Shown: positions 574-43,327 of the stretch, piece by piece | Layout of the letters: each line of letters starts with the position of its first letter | Position numbering within the stretch: the stretch's first letter is position 1 | Origin: a phage | Length of the DNA stretch: 44,927 nucleotides | Sequence record: PZ871095.1 | Reading direction: 5' to 3' (one strand) | Translations under genes and position numbers: made by a program | Notes under the pieces: generated by a model | The model's database searches: none | What the model was told of the DNA's origin: nothing | Seen by the model: the letters and a program-made list of their open reading frames with translations, nothing else

Positions 574-1958
574 TGCGTAACTATGCGGCAGAACACCGCG
601 CACTGGAGCGCACGATCGCAAAGCGCAACCGACCACCACGCCCGACACGCGTTGCGCAGGCCGTCCGCCTGTACCAGCCTGATTGCCTACCGCACCAGGT
701 CGAACTACTGCGGGACACGAAGACTAAAATCCTCGGCCTGTGTTCCGGATTCGGCGGCGGCAAGTCATGGGTCGCCGCCCGTAAGGTAATCCAGCTTTTA
801 ACCCTGAACCCTGGTTATGACGGCATCGTGACCGAACCGACTATTCCACTCCTGGTTAAAATCATGTATCCGGAACTGGAGAAGGCATTCGACGAGGCTG
901 GCTTCCGGTGGAAGTTCAATAAGCAGGACAAGATCTATAACGTGCTGGTGAAAGGGAAATGGACCCGCGTTATCTGTGAATCAATGGAGAACTATACCCG
1001 CCTGATCGGGGTCAACGCCGCATGGATTGTCGCCGACGAGTTCGACACCACGAAACAAGACGTCGCAATGGCGGCATACCACAAATTGCTCGGTCGTCTG
1101 CGTGCGGGCTTCGTCCGCCAGTTTGTCATCGTGTCCACGCCGGAAGGCTACCGGGCGATGTATCAAATTTTCGAGGTGGAGAAGGGTAGCCAGAAGCGCC
1201 TGATCCGGGCGAAGACCACGGACAACCACCATTTACCGGCAGACTTTATCGACACGCTGCGCAGTCAGTACCCGACTAACCTGATTGATGCGTACCTGAA
1301 CGGCCTGTTTGTTAACCTTACGTCTGGCGCGGTGTACAAGATGTTCAACCGCGAGGAGAACGCCAGCACCGAAGAAGTGCAGCCGGACGACACGCTGATT
1401 ATCGGTATGGACTTTAACGTCACGAAAATGGCGGCGGTTGTGTATGTCAGACGGCAGCGCATCACCGAGAACAAGGAGTTCCGCGACGAGATCCACGCAG
1501 TGGATGAATTTGTGGACCTGTTTGACACCCCGGCTATGATTGAGGCGATCGAGGAGCGCTATCCGGAACATTGTGCCGCCGGTAGGGTCGTCGTTTACCC
1601 GGATAGCAGCGGCAAATCCCGCAAGACGGTCAACGCGTCGTCGTCCGATATCGCACAACTGGAAGACGCGGGCTTCGAGGTGGAATATGACAGCGTTAAC
1701 CCGCCAGTGAAAGACAGACTTATCGCGATGAATACGATGATGTGCAACTCGAAGGGCGTGCGCCAGTATTTTGTCAACCTGGATAAATGCCCTACACTAG
1801 CGAAATGTCTGGAGCAGCAGGTGTACGACCTGAAGAAAGGCGAACCGGATAAAACTGCCGGTGTGGACCACATGAATGACGCGGCGGGCTACCCGATTGC
1901 GCACTTGTTCCCTGTGATTCGTCCGATCGCCGTTGTTCCAACCGTAGACTTCTACTAA
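573..1958 (+). CDS. terminase large subunit
   Basis: 461 aa; Walker A-like GLCSGFGGGKS near the N-terminus; ATG start confirmed; sits directly before the portal gene. Confidence 0.9.
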   Translation: MRNYAAEHRALERTIAKRNRPPRPTRVAQAVRLYQPDCLPHQVELLRDTKTKILGLCSGFGGGKSWVAARKVIQLLTLNPGYDGIVTEPTIPLLVKIMYPELEKAFDEAGFRWKFNKQDKIYNVLVKGKWTRVICESMENYTRLIGVNAAWIVADEFDTTKQDVAMAAYHKLLGRLRAGFVRQFVIVSTPEGYRAMYQIFEVEKGSQKRLIRAKTTDNHHLPADFIDTLRSQYPTNLIDAYLNGLFVNLTSGAVYKMFNREENASTEEVQPDDTLIIGMDFNVTKMAAVVYVRRQRITENKEFRDEIHAVDEFVDLFDTPAMIEAIEERYPEHCAAGRVVVYPDSSGKSRKTVNASSSDIAQLEDAGFEVEYDSVNPPVKDRLIAMNTMMCNSKGVRQYFVNLDKCPTLAKCLEQQVYDLKKGEPDKTAGVDHMNDAAGYPIAHLFPVIRPIAVVPTVDFY

Positions 1959-1969
1959 GGAAACCGACC

Positions 1970-3490
1970 ATGACCGTTAACGTTGACAACCAGCACCCGC
2001 TCTATGCGCGCATCGCGCCAGAGTGGAAAATGATCCGTGACTGCGTAGCGGGGGAGCGCGCCGTGAAGGCGTGCGGCCCCTTGTACCTGCCACACCCAGC
2101 AAGCGGCGACACCTCCGACCCGAAATCTCGGGCACGCTATAAGGCATATAAGCAACGTGCTGTCTTCCTGAACGCCACCGCCCGCACACTGAATGCACTG
2201 TTAGGCGTCGCCTTCGCCAAACCGGTGAGTATGGACCTTTCCGGGGCAATGGCTGACCTGATCGAAGACGTAGACGGCAGCGGGATGCCCCTGGCACAAC
2301 TCCTGCGCGGCGCTATGTCGGAAGTGCTGCAATCAGGCCGTGCCGGGTTTATGGTCGACTACGACCGCCAGGCGCATTTTGACGAACTGGGTAACGTAGT
2401 ACCGCAGACCGCCGCTGAAATGGCAGCACACCGCCCGCTTATCCGCCTGTATACGGCTGAACAGATCATTAACTGGCGGCAGACCCACGGCGTCGACACG
2501 CTGATTGTGCTGAAGGAAACGGACGAAATCAGCACCGAAGACCCGGACGACTTCGCAAACCACGAAGTAACGATCTGGACCGAGCTTCGCATGATTGCAG
2601 GTAAGGCCCACGCCCGCCGCTGGTTTTACAACGCTGACACGTCCGAGGTGCAGATGGACTTGCCGCGAGGCTTCACCCGCACCGACCTTGTACCATTGGT
2701 GGATGCCTCCGGTAATGCGCTAACTCAACTGCCATTTTGCTGGTGTGGCGCGGTGGACAACAACGCGACACCGGACGCCGCACCGCTGGCGGATATTGCG
2801 TCCATCAACATTAAGCACTACAACGCCGAAGCGGACGTCGCCGAGATTGCGCACATCGTGGGGCAACCTACCCTCATTGCGACTGGTCTTACCCAATCAT
2901 GGGCGGACAAGAACCTGAAAGGCGGCATCGCGCTCGGGGCAACTAAGGGCGTTATCCTGGGCCAGAACATGGACGCCAAACTGCTTCAGGCGGAGGAGCG
3001 CAACTTGTCGGTTGCACTGTGTGAGCGCCGTGAATTGCAAATGGCTAAACTGGGCGCGGCCCTGGTCGAGAAGGGGACCGCACCTAAGACGGCAACCGAA
3101 GCGGCCTACGATGCGCAGACTGATAACAGTATCCTGTCACTGATTGCCGGTAACGTTGAGAAGGCTTTCAACCGTGCGCTGCAAATCGTCAAGCTGTTCA
3201 CGGGCGACACCGCAGATCAACGCGTAACGCTGAATAAGTTCTACACCGAAATCACGGTTGACGCACAGCTTATGACCGCAATGATGGCGGGTGTGCAGAC
3301 CGGTACGGTCCGTCTGGCGGACTTTATCAAGTGGATGATGGCCCAGGGCGTTATTGATGACTCGCAAACCGTCGAGCAGGTGGAAGACGAACTGCGAAAT
3401 CAGAATCCATTGCCTCAAATGTCCCCGGATGCGGTAGAATCGACCAAAGAAGCCCCGGACGAGGTAGCGGACAATGGCGAAGACAATTAA
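1970..3490 (+). CDS. portal protein
   Basis: 506 aa between terminase and head morphogenesis gene; acidic C-terminus; AAGGAAA ribosome-binding site before the ATG at 1970. Confidence 0.85.
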   Translation: MTVNVDNQHPLYARIAPEWKMIRDCVAGERAVKACGPLYLPHPASGDTSDPKSRARYKAYKQRAVFLNATARTLNALLGVAFAKPVSMDLSGAMADLIEDVDGSGMPLAQLLRGAMSEVLQSGRAGFMVDYDRQAHFDELGNVVPQTAAEMAAHRPLIRLYTAEQIINWRQTHGVDTLIVLKETDEISTEDPDDFANHEVTIWTELRMIAGKAHARRWFYNADTSEVQMDLPRGFTRTDLVPLVDASGNALTQLPFCWCGAVDNNATPDAAPLADIASINIKHYNAEADVAEIAHIVGQPTLIATGLTQSWADKNLKGGIALGATKGVILGQNMDAKLLQAEERNLSVALCERRELQMAKLGAALVEKGTAPKTATEAAYDAQTDNSILSLIAGNVEKAFNRALQIVKLFTGDTADQRVTLNKFYTEITVDAQLMTAMMAGVQTGTVRLADFIKWMMAQGVIDDSQTVEQVEDELRNQNPLPQMSPDAVESTKEAPDEVADNGEDN

Positions 3491-4577
3491 TCAATATATG
3501 GCGGATCGAATGATTCGCCGTCACATCTTCACCCAGCGCCTGAGTAATGACCAGGCGCGGATGGTGTTGGCTATGTGGGAGAAGTTCCGGCCCACGTTAC
3601 TGGGTAAGCTGACCGAGTTGCTTGATGGTAAAAAGTCCATGAGCAACAAGGCGCTTACCACCCTGTTAACGCAACTCGACAAGACCGTCAAAACGGAACT
3701 GCGCACCGAGTTTAAGGTGCTGGCTGAAAGCCTTCAGGAGTTCGCCGACACCGAGGCCGATTATCTCGCCGACACATTAACGGCAGCGATCCAGCCGGTG
3801 GTCGCCGTACCTGCGGTCGAGGTGGTTGGCGTAGTGACCGGCGCGCAGATCGCAGCAACGGCAATGAAAAACCCGTTCCTGGGCAATACCATGATGCAAT
3901 GGCCCGACTCACTTTCTGAGTGGACCAGGACGCAGATCGGTAATCAGGTGCGGGCGGGATTCATCCAGGGCAAGCCAACGATGGAAATTATCGCGGACGT
4001 GAGGCGCGCGCTAGGCGGTCGTAGTGCGCAAGCCATCTCAAGCGTTGTTAAGTCCGCAGTCAACCACTATGCGGCGACCGCCCGCGAACTAATGGTAAAA
4101 GCAAATGACGATATTCTCGAAGGTCGCCAATGGTTATCTACATTGGACACGCATACTTCTCCCATGTGCCAGCTACGCGATCGCCTGTTTTATCCGGTTG
4201 ATGTTACTCCCGACACCAAAGGAAAGCGCGGCGGGAAAGTGGTGGCTGGGTCACAATATGGCGCTGGTCCGGGCAAGTTGCATTATTGCTGCCGCTCGAC
4301 GGAGACGTGGAAAGTCAAAGGTATGGAAGATTGGCCCAGTGGTAAGCGTCCGGCACTGAAGGCCGACGCGGGCAGATTGCTGAGTGAGCAGGTCGACGCG
4401 CAGACGGATTTCTTCTCATGGGTACAGCGCCAGCCGCGCCATATCCTGGAGGAATTATATGGAGTGCAACGCGCCGACCAGATTATGCGCGGCGTGAAAG
4501 TGCCGAAGATGTTTACCGATTCTGGCGAACTGATGACTATCGCACAGCTTAAAAACCGGGGGTTATGGCGTGATTAA
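3474..4577 (+). CDS. head morphogenesis protein (Mu F / SPP1 gp7-like minor head protein)
   Basis: 367 aa overlapping the portal 3' end; conserved-looking WLSTLDTHTSPMCQ segment typical of this family; position after portal. Confidence 0.7.
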   Translation: MAKTINQYMADRMIRRHIFTQRLSNDQARMVLAMWEKFRPTLLGKLTELLDGKKSMSNKALTTLLTQLDKTVKTELRTEFKVLAESLQEFADTEADYLADTLTAAIQPVVAVPAVEVVGVVTGAQIAATAMKNPFLGNTMMQWPDSLSEWTRTQIGNQVRAGFIQGKPTMEIIADVRRALGGRSAQAISSVVKSAVNHYAATARELMVKANDDILEGRQWLSTLDTHTSPMCQLRDRLFYPVDVTPDTKGKRGGKVVAGSQYGAGPGKLHYCCRSTETWKVKGMEDWPSGKRPALKADAGRLLSEQVDAQTDFFSWVQRQPRHILEELYGVQRADQIMRGVKVPKMFTDSGELMTIAQLKNRGLWRD

Positions 4578-6178: not shown

Positions 6179-6208
6179 AATATAATGCAACCAACATACG
6201 CAATGCAA
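6179..6208 (-). promoter_or_regulatory. putative sigma70-type promoter for the minus-strand gene pair (TTGCAT-N18-TATATT)
   Basis: Minus-strand reading cgcTTGCATtgcgtatgTTGGTTGCATTATATTGGTTGCAC; contains two copies of the recurring TTGGTTGCA motif; about 30 nt upstream of the ATG at 6143. Confidence 0.4.
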
Positions 6209-24691: not shown

Positions 24692-25246
24692 TTATTTCAG
24701 TGCGCCAGTCACCAGTGTTTTTTCCATGTTGCGGAAGTCTTCCGGCGTCATGAGGATTTTGGACCCGTCTTCGCCAGTTAGAACGACCATAGGCTGGACG
24801 TCTTGATCTGCAATGCCGAAATTGGCGGCTTTGACAGTCTTTCCGAACGAGGCCACAGTCTCCTCGGCAACGCGCATCGCACTGTTATACGCATTAATCT
24901 CGCCATCAAGACGCACGGACAGACCTTTGAGGCTTTCAAACTGTTCTGCCGTTGTATCGACCTGAATCTCGTCATGCACGGTCATGTAAGACTCGCCCAG
25001 CAATGCGGCATACGCTACCAGGTCGACGATATTGTCTTCCTGGTGCTTACGGTGCTGGCGCACCAGCTTCAGGCAAATCAGGAAGGTCCAGGCTTCTTGC
25101 TCGGTTAGGTCGCGACCGGTAAGAGCGTTAAACACGGCGGCGATTTGTTTAGCGCTGCGTTCTTCTTTCGCGTTGTCATAGCCGTTTGCTTTCCCGCGCT
25201 GCTCCATAGTGGTGGCGGCGTTTTTGCAGTATTCGTATGCTTTCAC
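24692..25246 (-). CDS. hypothetical protein
   Basis: 184 aa ORF with GTG start in the leftward block; no motif recognised. Confidence 0.5.
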   Translation of the reverse strand: MKAYEYCKNAATTMEQRGKANGYDNAKEERSAKQIAAVFNALTGRDLTEQEAWTFLICLKLVRQHRKHQEDNIVDLVAYAALLGESYMTVHDEIQVDTTAEQFESLKGLSVRLDGEINAYNSAMRVAEETVASFGKTVKAANFGIADQDVQPMVVLTGEDGSKILMTPEDFRNMEKTLVTGALK

Positions 25247-25309
25247 AGTATTACCCTTTTTAGTGAGGGGGCTGTATTGCCCCGACGAGTTAACTATAAT
25301 GCAACCAAC

Positions 25310-25780
25310 CTATTGGTTGCAAGTGAATTTTGCAACGTTTATTGCGTAAATTTTCGGAACCAAATCACCACACGCCCGACGAATTGCCGCGATGTTCTTC
25401 TCGCAATCTTCAATGATGACCAGTTCCGACACGTCTGCGTAGCAGACCATTTTGAATACAGCGCACGCCTTAAACTCTGGCGGCGGGGTGTCGTCCAGCA
25501 TGTGGCGCATAAACAACCGGCCGTTCGGGAAGACCTCCAATTGCTCGGCGGTGGTGTCCCAACATTCTCGCTGCCGGTTGGTCAGATACGCGATCTCGAA
25601 GCCTTGCTCTTTATACATGCGCAGTAGCGGCAGCATATCCATGTTAAGGTCTTCGCGGACATGCGCCTTGTGCCACTTCGCCCAAAAGGTGGATTTAGTT
25701 TTTATGCCCGGCACCAAGTCGGCACGCGCATCACTTGAACCGTTAATAACGCCATCCAAATCGCAAATCAGTAATTTCAT
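25310..25780 (-). CDS. HAD-superfamily hydrolase (putative nucleotidase/phosphatase)
   Basis: 156 aa; N-terminal LLICDLDGVI matches HAD motif I (DxDG); ATG start. Confidence 0.65.
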   Translation of the reverse strand: MKLLICDLDGVINGSSDARADLVPGIKTKSTFWAKWHKAHVREDLNMDMLPLLRMYKEQGFEIAYLTNRQRECWDTTAEQLEVFPNGRLFMRHMLDDTPPPEFKACAVFKMVCYADVSELVIIEDCEKNIAAIRRACGDLVPKIYAINVAKFTCNQ

Positions 25781-26001
25781 TTTAAACTCTCAATAAGGGT
25801 CTGTCGGGCGCTTCGCGCAGTAAAGGAGTTGCACACGAAATGGCAACGCTGAGTCATGACAAGCCAACCGGTGAGGTCAAGGCCCATGATGCGTCCGGGG
25901 CGAGACGCGCGCACCACATGATTGCGCCGCGGGTCAATGCAGAAGTCTTTTTGCATATGGTCTACAACCGCGGGGTCGCGGTCAACGATTAAGATATTCA
26001 A
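25777..26001 (-). CDS. small hypothetical protein
   Basis: 74-aa ORF filling the gap between the HAD and Dam genes; TTG start preceded by AAGGAG; stop overlaps the HAD ATG (ATGA). Confidence 0.35.
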   Translation of the reverse strand: MNILIVDRDPAVVDHMQKDFCIDPRRNHVVRASRPGRIMGLDLTGWLVMTQRCHFVCNSFTARSARQTLIESLK

Positions 26002-26467
26002 GGAGTTCTCCTTCGCTCATTATTTCAATTTGTGCGCTGCCGATGGGTGGCGCTTCGTCAAAGATTATCAGTTGCTGGCACTTATTATTGCTAGGCCCGA
26101 CTTCACCGGTTACAGCGTGTATAAATCTAATCCGCCAGTCCAGAAGAATTATCAGGTTTGCAGTCTTCCGGGCCAGCTTCGCCCACTTCGTCGACGTGTC
26201 CTGATTCAGTAGCATGACAGTACGGCGTCCGTGCGCTGCGCACTCGACCCACGGCAGCGGATCGGAATACGGCGGATTGCACCACTTCCACCCTTTCAAC
26301 TCGGACCAGTCCACATCAAGCGCGCTGTGTTCCGCCGTGAAGTAACGCGGGAGCAGGTGGTTTGCATCGCTTGCCGCCATATCGTAACGGAATCGGTATT
26401 TCCGACGAAGCGGTTTAAATAAAGCTGGCGGCGTGCGCCAGCCATCCTTCTGCTCACTCTTCTGCAT
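25982..26467 (-). CDS. DNA N6-adenine methyltransferase (phage Dam-type)
   Basis: 161 aa with catalytic NPPY motif (WCNPPYS) typical of N6-adenine methyltransferases; ATG start. Confidence 0.8.
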   Translation of the reverse strand: MQKSEQKDGWRTPPALFKPLRRKYRFRYDMAASDANHLLPRYFTAEHSALDVDWSELKGWKWCNPPYSDPLPWVECAAHGRRTVMLLNQDTSTKWAKLARKTANLIILLDWRIRFIHAVTGEVGPSNNKCQQLIIFDEAPPIGSAQIEIMSEGELLEYLNR

Positions 26468-26912
26468 GATCTGGATCTATCGCATACAAGGCAATTTTCT
26501 CACCACTGTTTAGAACGCGTTGCAGGCGCTTTGCTCCATCGTCGCTGAGCCGTCGGCAATCGGAGTAGTAGCTACCGTTTTTGCGCCACGCCATAAGCAC
26601 CAGGTCTTTACGGTCGATCTTCGTTGTGCGACCTTTTGGGCGCACGTACTCCTCGGCACGTTTGCAATGCTCGCGCAAACCTTCGGCAGTGATGCGGTTT
26701 AGTGCAACGCTGGTTGTGTATCCGGTGCGCTGCATAATCCCCATCAATTCGAAAAGCAGTTCGAAGCGCTCCTCTAATTCCTTGCGCATCTTCTCCTCGC
26801 CTTCATAGCTTGCCAGGTAGGTATCCGCCAGCGCGTTCGCCCGTTCGGCTTGCTCTCGGGCTTCGAGGCATTGCGCGGCCCAGTAATTTTTCTCTTCTTG
26901 TAAAATTTTCAT
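26454..26912 (-). CDS. hypothetical protein
   Basis: 152 aa, ATG start, overlaps the Dam start; charged helical N-terminus, basic C-terminal half. Confidence 0.55.
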   Translation of the reverse strand: MKILQEEKNYWAAQCLEAREQAERANALADTYLASYEGEEKMRKELEERFELLFELMGIMQRTGYTTSVALNRITAEGLREHCKRAEEYVRPKGRTTKIDRKDLVLMAWRKNGSYYSDCRRLSDDGAKRLQRVLNSGEKIALYAIDPDHAEE

Positions 26913-26959
26913 CGTGTTGTCTCCAGGTATTAAAAAGGGCGTCCAAACCGGACACCCTC

Positions 26960-26988
26960 AATATAATGCAACCAATCTAATTATGCAA
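26960..26988 (-). promoter_or_regulatory. putative sigma70-type promoter (TTGCAT-N17-TATATT) with TTGGTTGCA motif
   Basis: Minus-strand reading aTTGGTTGCATaattagaTTGGTTGCATTATATTgaggg, about 45 nt upstream of the ATG at 26912. Confidence 0.4.
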
Positions 26989-26993
26989 CCAAT

Positions 26994-27317
26994 TTACGAA
27001 TAAAAATTTGGGTCGCGTGCAACGTCTACCAGATACAGATTGCTGATTCGGTTGCCGTAGTGGCCTGGTGTTCGCTGGCGGCACACAACGGCGTAGCCTG
27101 GAGGAATTGTATTGCCGGTCGCGATAATCCACGCCACGCGTGCGCCCGATAGCGTTTTGCCGTTGCATTCGATGCGCGTGCCGCCATCGGCAGTGTTGAG
27201 GTTGCCAATTTTGCAGCCGGTGGACTTCAGACGAATGACGCCGGTTTTGCTGTCGTAGGAGAATAACTGGTTAGTCATTGCAACCGAAAAATCAATGGCT
27301 TCGAATGTAGTATTCAT
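26994..27317 (-). CDS. HNH-like endonuclease-family protein (possibly degenerate)
   Basis: 107 aa; C-terminal PGHYGNRISNLYLVDVARDPN resembles the HNH core (H...N...N), but the first conserved His region looks substituted. Confidence 0.4.
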   Translation of the reverse strand: MNTTFEAIDFSVAMTNQLFSYDSKTGVIRLKSTGCKIGNLNTADGGTRIECNGKTLSGARVAWIIATGNTIPPGYAVVCRQRTPGHYGNRISNLYLVDVARDPNFYS

Positions 27318-28009
27318 TTTAAATTTTCCTCATTGACCGCTATCGCGAAGCCGCGCGGGGTGAGCGACCGGATTAATTTTGTGCGGGCTGATTTGCCTCC
27401 GAGGCGACTATACTGCTTCGAGTACCCTTTTTCAACGAAAACAGGTTTCTTCTCTGGCATACGGAAGCCGTTACCGGTCCATAAGCAGGTCAGCTTCGGA
27501 TATGAATCGCGGGCGTTGATGTATTCCGGGAAGAGCGGGTGTACGTCATCCTCCGGCAGATATCCCCCATACTCCCACGGGTCGAATGAGTGGTCCGGCT
27601 TACGCCACTGGGTGGAAAGCACACTGCGCGGATTCTCAATCATATATGGCACTTCGAAGAAGTCACCCAGGTAAGCGGCGATCTTCGCGGTGCGCACCGC
27701 CTTAAGCTGAAAGGCTGGGTCTTTTGCACGCTTGCGCGGGAAAGCTGGCGCACCGCTCACTGCCAGATCCGTGCACGGAGGAAACGCATAGATGATATCT
27801 GGCGTACCGAAATCGCCATTCATCGCACGGTCTACAAAGTCCAGATCGATAAACTCATTGCGATAGCGGATTCCGCGACCATAAATCCGGTAGTCAAGGT
27901 AAGACCCGTGATCGGCTTCGGAGTAGTTGAAGCAATAACACTTATGCCCCATCTCGGCAGCACGCTCAATCATCAAACCGCTGCCGTCAAACAATGACCA
28001 GATTATCAT
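27314..28009 (-). CDS. compact C5-cytosine methyltransferase-like protein
   Basis: 231 aa with motif I-like LFDGSG, motif IV-like FPPCTDLAVSG (catalytic PC) and motif VI-like ENP; far shorter than typical C5 methyltransferases; coupled to neighbours by ATGA overlaps. Confidence 0.55.
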   Translation of the reverse strand: MIIWSLFDGSGLMIERAAEMGHKCYCFNYSEADHGSYLDYRIYGRGIRYRNEFIDLDFVDRAMNGDFGTPDIIYAFPPCTDLAVSGAPAFPRKRAKDPAFQLKAVRTAKIAAYLGDFFEVPYMIENPRSVLSTQWRKPDHSFDPWEYGGYLPEDDVHPLFPEYINARDSYPKLTCLWTGNGFRMPEKKPVFVEKGYSKQYSRLGGKSARTKLIRSLTPRGFAIAVNEENLK

Positions 28010-29430
28010 TTGCGCGCCTTTTTAGCTTTCATGTATTCCATCAAGTCGTCCTGTATATCTCGCTTACTGTCGCGACGCTCGGCGACCAATTCGTCCAATG
28101 TCCCGCGAGCCTGGATAATGTAGACGAATACCGGTCGAGGGTGTCCGGCCTGCATCTGGCGAACCGGCCCGATACGTTCAACGATCTGCGAAAAGTGCTC
28201 AAAGTTCCAGGTATCGGAGAATATTGCCAGGTGATGTCCGCCGTCCTGCAAGTTAAGGCCGTGGCCCGCCGATGCCGGGTGTGCAAACATGATGGGGATC
28301 TCGCCCCTGTTCCACGCTTCCATATCCTTATTGCCCTGCTTACCTTTACCCAACGCAACGCCGTGCGGAAATTTCTTCTTAAGACGTGCCAGGTCATGCT
28401 TATACTGATACGCAACGAGCAACGGCGCGCCGTTCAACTCCTCCACGATACTTTCCAGTGCGTCCAGCTTCGCGTCGTGAATCTTCACCCACTCGTCGGT
28501 CCGTTCGCCGTCTTCGTCCACCTTATACACAGCGCCGGAAGCAAGCTGAAGGCACTTAATTGTCTTCGATGCCGCGTTCGCCGCTTCCACTGTTCCGCTT
28601 TCCAGTTCGGCAAATAGCTCGCTTTCAAACTGGTCGTAGATCTTGCGGGCTTTCTTCGGCAGGTCCACAACAACCGGCGTATAGATTGGCTTGTCGCATC
28701 CGAAGTATTCAGCCGCGTCAACGGTTAGTGATACGTCAGACAGGCGTTGTTGTATTTCTTTCTCGGAGTTCTTTAGCGGGGCGTGCTGCATCGTGAAGCT
28801 GCCAGGCTTAACAGGCTTGCTAATGAACCAGCGATCGGTGAATGCCTTATAGCTACTGCCGAGGCGTTCGCCACCGTCGACAAACCACGTCTGACCCCAT
28901 AAGTCTTTTAGCCCGTTTGGCGCTGGTGTGCCGGTAAGGTTAATCCAGCGCTTGACGTGTTTATGTGCAATCGCTGCCAGTGCGCGGGCGCGCTTGCTCC
29001 CCTGCTTGCTACGATAGCCTTTCAGCTTAGTCGATTCATCGGCAACAACGACCGTAAAGGGCCACGCATCGCCGTAATAGTCGACCAGCCACTCAACCAC
29101 ATCGTAGTTAACACAAACCACGTTAGCGTCGCTCTCAAGCGCCGCAATACGGTCCTTCTCCGGCCCGGTGCCGTCTACGACCAGCAGGGATGAGAATCGC
29201 CATTTCTCCTGTTCCGGGGGCCATGTACCCGACGCAACACGCAGCGGGGCCAGCACCAGTACGCGGTCCTCATGATGGGACAGGACGCCAGTCTGGAACA
29301 TTTTATTCAGCGCCCACATTGTCGCGCCGGTTTTACCCGACCCCATTGTCGCCCAGATATTACATCGCTTATGCTTGAGGATGAACGCGGTTATCAACTT
29401 CTGATATTCGCGGCGTCGGAATCGTGCCAT
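28006..29430 (-). CDS. SNF2/DEAD-like superfamily 2 helicase
   Basis: Walker A GSGKTG, DExx-like VVADEST and conserved helicase C-terminal motifs; start placed at ATG 29430 (MARFRRREYQ) rather than the upstream alternative at 29520. Confidence 0.85.
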   Translation of the reverse strand: MARFRRREYQKLITAFILKHKRCNIWATMGSGKTGATMWALNKMFQTGVLSHHEDRVLVLAPLRVASGTWPPEQEKWRFSSLLVVDGTGPEKDRIAALESDANVVCVNYDVVEWLVDYYGDAWPFTVVVADESTKLKGYRSKQGSKRARALAAIAHKHVKRWINLTGTPAPNGLKDLWGQTWFVDGGERLGSSYKAFTDRWFISKPVKPGSFTMQHAPLKNSEKEIQQRLSDVSLTVDAAEYFGCDKPIYTPVVVDLPKKARKIYDQFESELFAELESGTVEAANAASKTIKCLQLASGAVYKVDEDGERTDEWVKIHDAKLDALESIVEELNGAPLLVAYQYKHDLARLKKKFPHGVALGKGKQGNKDMEAWNRGEIPIMFAHPASAGHGLNLQDGGHHLAIFSDTWNFEHFSQIVERIGPVRQMQAGHPRPVFVYIIQARGTLDELVAERRDSKRDIQDDLMEYMKAKKARK

Positions 29431-29434
29431 TTCT

Positions 29435-29653
29435 TTATTCCGCCTTTTTCCAGACTTCGGTTTCACTGTTCCAGTTCCTTTTTGTAGCGTCGTAGTTGGT
29501 GGCGTGTCCGATGTGCACACCGGTAGCCCGGAAGCTCTTAAATTTTTGCCAGCACACCGTCAACGGCAGCGGATCATTCATGCCCGCGATAAACCATACG
29601 CGATCGCCCGGTTTACATTCGCCCAGCTTGGTTAGTCGGTAATGTTCTTTCAT
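29435..29653 (-). CDS. small hypothetical protein
   Basis: 72 aa from ATG 29653 preceded by GGGAGA; stop lies 5 nt upstream of the helicase start. Confidence 0.4.
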   Translation of the reverse strand: MKEHYRLTKLGECKPGDRVWFIAGMNDPLPLTVCWQKFKSFRATGVHIGHATNYDATKRNWNSETEVWKKAE

Positions 29654-43276: not shown

Positions 43277-43327
43277 GCTTGACTCGCAACCAACACAGGG
43301 GCCATACTGCAACCAATCAACTGGAGG

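Follow-up and report, generated by a model that had tools for sequence, protein, structure and literature searches.

A short Dcm-like and a Dam-like putative orphan DNA methyltransferase in the leftward replication block of a Dhillonvirus coliphage

The DNA analysed here is sequence record PZ871095.1, a stretch of 44,927 nucleotides from a phage (44.9 kb, 54.7% GC). We call this whole stretch the window, and all positions follow its numbering. Its minus strand carries a gene cluster (25982-29430) with a short Dcm-like cytosine-C5 methyltransferase of 231 amino acids (aa), referred to as the short Dcm, and a Dam-like N6-adenine methyltransferase of 161 aa, together with an SNF2-type helicase, an HNH-like protein and a 152-aa open reading frame (ORF). 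We consider it likely that the two methyltransferases are orphans at the end of a replication operon, which methylate progeny DNA independently of the host Dam and Dcm. The evidence below establishes the fold, motifs, homology and conservation of the short Dcm and the activity of a homologue; from it we infer the activity of the short Dcm itself, its CCWGG target, the target of the Dam-like protein and their biological role. The four genes that the original prediction for this DNA had named all exist where it placed them. The cluster reads as follows.

28006-29430, minus strand: SNF2-family (superfamily 2, SF2) helicase/ATPase, 474 aa from the ATG at 29430 (PF00176, PHROG 62)
27314-28009, minus strand: putative short Dcm-like DNA cytosine-C5 methyltransferase, 231 aa (motifs I, IV and VI; PHROG 757)
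26994-27317, minus strand: HNH_3 / I-HmuI-like protein with an apparently degenerate active-site region, 107 aa (PHROG 99)
26913-26993, minus strand: intergenic gap, 81 nt, non-coding, with a repeated motif and a hairpin read in the sequence
26454-26912, minus strand: 152-aa ORF, whose database label "DNA ligase" is unsupported (PHROG 10530)
25982-26467, minus strand: small phage-type N6-adenine DNA methyltransferase, 161 aa (PF05869 "Dam", NPPY motif)

The short Dcm and its characterised homologue

A homologue of the short Dcm has been characterised experimentally. Mutants of phage K42 that escape the retron Ec86/Eco1 have been isolated, and their mutations all disrupt, or may disrupt the expression of, a 711-bp gene named "dcm" (Wang et al., bioRxiv 10.1101/2023.08.16.553469). 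K42 Dcm, produced on its own from a plasmid, is toxic only when retron Ec86 is present. By LC-MS (mass spectrometry coupled to liquid chromatography), 5-methylcytosine (5mC) in the multicopy single-stranded DNA (msDNA) is raised by wild-type K42 Dcm and not by its C82A/E128A/K175A/K176A mutant. In addition, mutating the CCTGG motif in the msDNA stem abolishes Ec86 defence, and such a Dcm is encoded by 34 of the 35 sequenced Ec86-sensitive phages (all 10.1101/2023.08.16.553469). A later paper treats this work as established. K42 is 95% identical to KarlJaspers/Bas06 (10.1101/2023.08.16.553469). The product of the KarlJaspers 711-bp gene (236 aa) is 54% identical to the 231-aa protein over residues 2-231 (BLASTP, E=1e-86), and its C82, E128 and K175 correspond to C79, E125 and K172 in the window. 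Because this identity extends over the full length, the 231-aa protein belongs to a family with demonstrated C5-methyltransferase activity, and by analogy we infer that it makes 5mC. Its most likely product is 5mC at Dcm-type CCWGG sites, as suggested by the K42 enzyme, and the window phage is likewise predicted to be sensed by retron Ec86/Eco1. The K42/KarlJaspers Dcm resembles the window Dcm in its PHROG 757 membership, full-length homology, similar size, orphan gene and origin from a small E. coli siphovirus. It differs in coming from Drexlerviridae and in having other neighbour genes, and a direct comparison finds none of the KarlJaspers Dcm neighbours homologous to the window HNH-like protein or SNF2 helicase.

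The catalytic motifs are well preserved. As the original prediction had read from the sequence, the 231-aa protein has C5-methyltransferase motifs I (F7-D-G-S-G11), IV (P77-P78-C79, with the cysteine at the catalytic position) and VI (E125-N126-P127, an ENP variant of ENV). K172 is a lysine like that of motif VIII. In motif I, F7, G9, S10 and G11 are invariant in 40 relatives. In a conservation alignment of 80 relatives, down to 32% identity, C79, E125 and P127 are invariant, and F76, P77, N126, R136, K172, R214 and S215 are kept in at least 90% of the sequences. PHROG 757 ("DNA methyltransferase") matches residues 1-229 with E=2e-82. The family comprises 2886 clusters at 90% identity, and 1983 clusters at 50% identity with E<=1e-3. 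It occurs in 1512 phage records, about 3% of phage records, with lengths nearly all between 210 and 260 aa. The phages that carry it include Dhillonvirus, Drexlerviridae, Vequintavirinae, T4-like and 9NA-like phages, Klebsiella phages and others. Odd as it looks, the 231-aa protein comes from a family that is very common in phages, and one member of it has already been characterised.

In the predicted structural model, the 231-aa protein has a Rossmann-type C5-methyltransferase fold. The fold matches include a DNA C5-carboxymethyltransferase (12.6), a prophage C5 methyltransferase (12.3), M.HhaI (11.5) and M.HaeIII (11.1), with DNMT1, DNMT2, M.MpeI and DNMT5 lower in the list. The short-Dcm profile also aligns in register with M.HaeIII over motifs I-IV, including its PPC, with a non-significant E=1. 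The original prediction had left room for a different nucleotide-modifying enzyme, which is contradicted by the modelled fold and by the 5mC made by the 54%-identical homologue. Thymidylate synthase and dCMP hydroxymethylase are rejected, with no Pfam match at E<=0.1 and no such structure among the listed fold matches. The profile searches that the original prediction had proposed as a check thus exclude these two families, and on the C5 side they fall short for the protein itself, with weak PF00145 matches coming from its relatives (24 of 40, best 1.3e-6).

E. coli Dcm, M.HhaI and M.HaeIII (PF00145) share with the 231-aa protein the catalytic fold and motifs I, IV and VI, and the host Dcm target, CCWGG, is its presumed target by analogy. 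The 231-aa protein is, however, about 100 to 240 residues shorter than E. coli Dcm and the classical bacterial C5 methyltransferases, has ENP in place of ENV in motif VI, and lies under Pfam detection, unlike the classical PF00145 enzymes; no vsr partner gene is recognised. The target-recognition domain of M.HhaI is roughly 85 aa or more. In the model of the 231-aa protein, no sizeable target-recognition domain is found between motifs VIII and IX. Only residues ~180-218 separate the last core strand (174-179) from the C-terminal helix (219-229), so that about 40 residues occupy the site of the classical variable domain. The original prediction that the usual target-recognition region is missing is therefore right in substance. 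Segment 180-218 holds the strongly conserved basic motif LGGKSxxTKxIRSLTPRG. The catalytic domains of DNMT3A and DNMT3B are only 13-16% identical to the 231-aa protein, and these enzymes differ in being eukaryotic oligomers with regulatory domains and a CpG target. Their likeness in fold need not mean that they share specificity or are related by direct descent. The short-Dcm fold is also seen as one domain of two large proteins of uncultured phages in BFVD, A0A6J5SE15 (1397 aa, annotated "Helicase/UvrB, N-terminal") and A0A6J5NPY6 (1126 aa), with 21-27% identity to the short Dcm and a TM (template-modelling) score of about 0.63.

Conservation and partner genes of the cluster

The 3.7-kb cluster region, used as a query against phage records, matches 160 of them at 80-95% nucleotide identity. 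In 150 of the 160, at least 80% of the query is covered, mostly at 90-95% nucleotide identity. Nearly all matching records come from Escherichia/Shigella phages that belong to Dhillonvirus, a genus of small HK578-like siphoviruses; Gluttony, welsh, Oekolampad/Bas18, EK99P-1, SECphi18 and Sodalis phage SO-1 are among the matches. The window is collinear with the complete Oekolampad genome, and its gene order is also collinear with that of SECphi18. Given the collinearity with Oekolampad and the 3.7-kb matches, the window is essentially a whole Dhillonvirus genome. Because the cluster is kept at this identity in 160 records, its arrangement is not due to chance. Existing records of relatives already carry the labels helicase, C5 cytosine methylase, HNH endonuclease and Dam methyltransferase. 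The cluster is a standard annotated feature, shared by over 150 Dhillonvirus genomes that have been sequenced.

The 161-aa protein clearly belongs, by its sequence, to the PF05869-type N6-adenine methyltransferases, in agreement with the Dam-type assignment and NPPY motif of the original prediction. PF05869 matches with 122.1 bits (cut-off 28.1), NPPY occupies residues 64-67, and PHROG 111 matches with E=1.5e-54. The protein fails the cut-off of the NCBIfam equivalog TIGR01712 (85 bits against 97.05), and a PDB sequence search with it returned nothing. The PF05869 methyltransferase in an equivalent module of the Edwardsiella phage eiAU-183 shares 45% identity with it. The strong restriction of Oekolampad by EcoRI and EcoRV makes it unlikely that the Dam-like protein methylates adenines non-specifically. 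A relationship to the non-specific Hia5 was considered and dropped, as Hia5 is a 281-aa relative of EcoDam/DpnM.

The assignment of the 107-aa protein as HNH-like stands in part. PHROG 99 ("HNH endonuclease") matches with E=2e-16, but the Pfam HNH_3 score of 13.2 bits lies under the threshold (24.8), with an alignment confined to profile positions 5-21. The HNH_3 family consensus in the catalytic region is "vdH..gd..dN...NL". At this position the 107-aa protein reads VVCRQRTPGHYGNRISNL and its eiAU homologue reads TVRCIDGGIGHYAQRWTNL. One histidine, H86, is conserved, off the usual HNH position. The AlphaFold2 model is unusable (predicted local distance difference test, pLDDT, 44.5; 6-sequence alignment), and a PDB sequence search found nothing. 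The protein is rare, with 5 clusters in 5.8 billion proteins. Its gene occurs in 158 Dhillonvirus records at >=80% identity, beside the Dcm gene in all matches listed. Outside Dhillonvirus it is found in 4 Edwardsiella phage records of the eiAU-183 type, at about 40%. In this distribution the protein is unlike a mobile homing endonuclease. Judged from these comparisons, the HNH-like gene appears degenerate, it has become fixed across the genus, and its product is probably a domesticated, non-homing derivative. The common label "homing endonuclease" on this gene is weakly supported.

The 152-aa ORF matches PHROG 10530 ("DNA ligase") with E=3.5e-93. It has no Pfam or NCBIfam match, and a PDB sequence search found no relative, the best matches being coiled-coil noise; its N-terminal half is coiled-coil-like. 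It falls into 214 clusters, of which the best 120 are all at least 79% identical, 151-154 aa long and without a Pfam domain, and among the matches listed it is specific to Dhillonvirus. Several RefSeq/GenBank records label it "DNA ligase", and one says "Possible DNA ligase but no evidence". This common label is unsupported and looks like a propagated mis-annotation.

For the helicase, the SNF2-type assignment is confirmed by PF00176 SNF2-rel_dom (40.8 bits, above the cut-off of 24.9) and by PHROG 62 ("DNA helicase", E=4.6e-157); DEAD, Helicase_C and ResIII match more weakly. The translation holds the motifs GSGKT, DEST, LTGTP and GHGLNLQ, and the program-called reading frame reaches a GTG at 29520. 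The gene shares a leftward block with those for DNA polymerase I, a VRR-NUC protein, an SSB (a protein that binds single-stranded DNA) and a PD-(D/E)XK nuclease. Most simply, the helicase would be a replication/recombination protein that shares the operon.

A related cluster is that of eiAU-183. Like the window, it has an SNF2 helicase, the homologue of the 107-aa protein (~40%) and a PF05869 Dam (45%), adjacent and on one strand. The order differs and is SNF2 helicase, HNH-like homologue, C5 methyltransferase and Dam (852-4382 of the stretch compared). The eiAU-183 C5 methyltransferase (330 aa, PF00145) was considered as a long form of the short Dcm and rejected, as the two have no significant similarity. 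Between eiAU-183 and Dhillonvirus, the set of functions is kept and the cytosine methyltransferase exchanged, a non-orthologous replacement on the basis of these alignments.

Proposed role, restriction and rival explanations

In the mechanism we favour, the region would be the distal part of a leftward early/replication gene block of a Dhillonvirus coliphage, and its methyltransferases would be orphans, having no partner restriction enzyme. The short Dcm would bind S-adenosylmethionine through its FxGxG pocket. Once the target cytosine is flipped out, its C6 would be attacked by Cys79 (PPC motif) and its N3 protonated by Glu125 (ENP motif). DNA would be read through the conserved basic segment of about 40 residues (LGGKSxxTKxIRSLTPRG) and not through a full target-recognition domain. 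Both methyltransferases would be expressed during replication, leading to methylation of the progeny phage DNA. This might give narrow protection against enzymes blocked by these marks, for example of the EcoRII type, and in dcm- hosts. The cost may be that Dcm itself is sensed by retron Ec86/Eco1.

Several observations weigh against this reading. The 231-aa protein has no Pfam match (E<=0.1) and no NCBIfam match, and PF00145 gives none at E<=1. Searches of PDB sequences with profiles stay below significance (M.HaeIII, E 0.65-1). Besides M.HaeIII, the searches of PDB chains with the 231-aa sequence and two family profiles returned DNMT2 (E 1.1) and short-chain dehydrogenase noise. Because these sequence-only searches are not significant, the C5-methyltransferase homology rests on the fold and on the weak PF00145 matches of relatives. 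The second lysine mutated in K42 Dcm, K176, is Leu173 in the window protein. The CCWGG specificity, carried over from the homologue, depends on one preprint's indirect test by mutation of the msDNA site. Moreover, the host in that work was dcm+ MG1655, yet msDNA 5mC was low without the phage enzyme (10.1101/2023.08.16.553469). Since msDNA 5mC was low in a dcm+ host, the phage Dcm may differ from the host Dcm in site, in substrate form or preference, or in dose. No methylation data for any Dhillonvirus were found in the searched literature. The authors of the BASEL collection did not find that methyltransferase genes go with restriction resistance in any simple way, and Oekolampad, a close relative of the window phage, is highly sensitive to the restriction-modification (RM) systems tested, so that a protective role is only proposed.

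In the BASEL data, Oekolampad/Bas18 plates at about 5e-5 on EcoRI (restricted about 10^4-fold) and below detection on EcoRV, EcoCFT_II and EcoPI. Because of this strong restriction, any protection could only be narrow, against enzymes blocked by particular methylated sites. The original prediction of a DNA-modification or anti-restriction module is thus borne out in its first half by the two methyltransferase genes, and its second half is overstated. With relatives strongly restricted by EcoRI, EcoRV and type III systems, the cluster does not amount to a broad anti-restriction module.

The candidate recognition sites are not avoided. The window has 152 CCWGG sites, compared with 114 expected from base composition and 162 under a maximal-order Markov model, and 162 GATC sites, compared with 172 and 210, respectively. 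Oekolampad and KarlJaspers show the same pattern. A two-fold CCWGG excess over dinucleotide shuffles (152 vs 71) was considered as a site-specific signal and rejected, as it is gone under the Markov expectation of 162. The excess over shuffles is a higher-order composition effect, reflecting E. coli-like oligonucleotide usage. As a separate observation, CTWGG and CCWAG, the deamination products of methylated CCWGG, are together strongly depleted in the window, with 19 sites compared with 49 (Markov) and 188 (base composition) expected; CCAAG occurs 3 times and CTTGG 9 times, each against 22 expected. E. coli shows a depletion of this kind, attributed there to very-short-patch repair.

An alternative with a limited but real chance is that the methyltransferases serve the phage's own DNA transactions and not anti-restriction, although both roles can coexist. 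Fully methylated, fast-replicating DNA would, for example, escape MutH nicking at hemimethylated GATC, or the DNA might be marked for replication or packaging control, as by P1 Dam. The embedding of the genes in a replication/recombination operon is in line with such a role, and the usual hosts are already dam+ dcm+. It would also fit the missing BASEL pattern linking methyltransferases to restriction resistance and the heavy restriction of relatives by the systems tested. However, neither GATC nor CCWGG methylation would block the BASEL systems (EcoRI, EcoRV, type I and type III). In addition, the non-homologous C5 methyltransferase of eiAU-183 argues for selection on cytosine methylation, a point that fits both readings. 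It is unlikely, in our view, that the short Dcm reads DNA unlike the host Dcm, with the HNH-like protein as a methylation partner as a further possibility. The short Dcm might then have a relaxed or shifted target, or prefer hairpin or replicating DNA, and such different recognition would explain why Ec86 msDNA 5mC is low in a dcm+ host until the phage enzyme is expressed. The HNH-like partner could nick mismatches as Vsr does or bind DNA in a 5mC-linked manner, an idea suggested by its place next to non-homologous C5 methyltransferases in Dhillonvirus and eiAU-like phages.

A closer association, in which the SNF2 helicase, the short Dcm and the HNH-like protein form one machine and the helicase or the HNH-like DNA binder targets the methyltransferase, is modelled on SNF2-methyltransferase fusions such as DNMT5. 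We regard it as quite improbable. The ATGA coupling of the three genes, the eiAU synteny and the phage proteins of 1100-1400 aa with a short-Dcm fold, one of them annotated "Helicase/UvrB, N-terminal", speak for it. Yet plasmid-borne K42 Dcm suffices to methylate DNA and to trigger the retron, the KarlJaspers Dcm neighbours are unrelated to the window HNH-like protein and SNF2 helicase, and the short-Dcm family occurs in many unrelated contexts, including Vequintavirinae, T4-like phages and 9NA. It is very improbable that the 231-aa protein adds a group other than methyl (for example carboxymethyl from carboxy-S-adenosylmethionine, Cx-SAM) or acts on a substrate that is not double-stranded DNA. 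LC-MS found 5mC for the 54%-identical homologue, Pfam and PHROG annotation finds no accessory hypermodification genes in the cluster, and relatives are efficiently cut by several restriction systems.

Gene coupling, the 81-nt gap and the downstream genes

The layout of the cluster departs from the original prediction in two respects. The two methyltransferase genes do not simply flank the HNH-like ORF, as the 152-aa ORF (26454-26912) intervenes before Dam. Translational coupling of all the genes holds for the SNF2/C5 and C5/HNH-like pairs, which alone are joined by ATGA overlaps, but is broken by the 81-nt gap, which parts the HNH-like gene from the 152-aa gene and so leaves two coupled blocks. 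In the second block, the 152-aa gene shares 14 nt with Dam, which in turn shares 20 nt with the following 74-aa ORF. The genes downstream of Dam and the copies of a motif found in the gap are listed here.

25777-26001, minus strand: 74-aa ORF, homologue of SECphi18 Ksap1 (81% identity)
25310-25780, minus strand: HAD-type phosphatase, under the Pfam cut-off, downstream of the cluster
24692-25246, minus strand: DUF6378 protein (E=1.2e-9), "nucleotide modification associated" in SECphi18
6181-6194, 25295-25308 and 26962-26975, minus strand: exact copies of motif TTGGTTGCATTATA (genome scan)
26979-26992 and 43303-43316, minus strand: copies of motif TTGGTTGCATTATA with 2 mismatches (genome scan)

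The 74-aa ORF (25777-26001, minus strand) lies between Dam and the HAD phosphatase and overlaps the Dam stop. Its product is 81% identical to Ksap1 of SECphi18, with 14 differences in 74 residues. Ksap1 is a small SECphi18 protein that activates KpAvs2 defence, and the escaping SECphi6 variant is reported to differ by 14 residues as well (PMC11564622). Because the number of differences is the same as in the escaping variant, the window phage may or may not be sensed by KpAvs2.

The 81-nt gap holds two copies of TTGGTTGCAT(T/A)AT, one exact (26962-26975) and one with 2 mismatches (26979-26992). The motif copies are followed by a 10-bp hairpin (about 26935-26959), which is the centroid structure (-17.6 kcal/mol), and then by a U-run; GGAG precedes the ATG of the 152-aa gene. 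In the genome, motif TTGGTTGCATTATA is found 5 times, always on the minus strand, with 0.25 expected, and probably serves the leftward genes as a promoter or operator element of the phage. From these elements, the gap would act as a promoter/operator and/or terminator. A promoter read by hand in the gap, TTGCAT-17-TATATT, fails the criteria of the promoter scan, and the hairpin is also unlisted by the scan. The motif copy at 25295 lies inside a promoter-like site, TTGCAA-18-TATAGT, and inside an inverted repeat. By their two-piece alignments, many relatives carry a further hypothetical gene of 243 bp, placed between the 81-nt gap and the 152-aa gene. In Oekolampad this gene is bas18_0034 (4012-4254 of the stretch compared), and it is missing from the window and from SECphi18. 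The resulting indel hotspot adjoins the repeated motif and hairpin of the gap.

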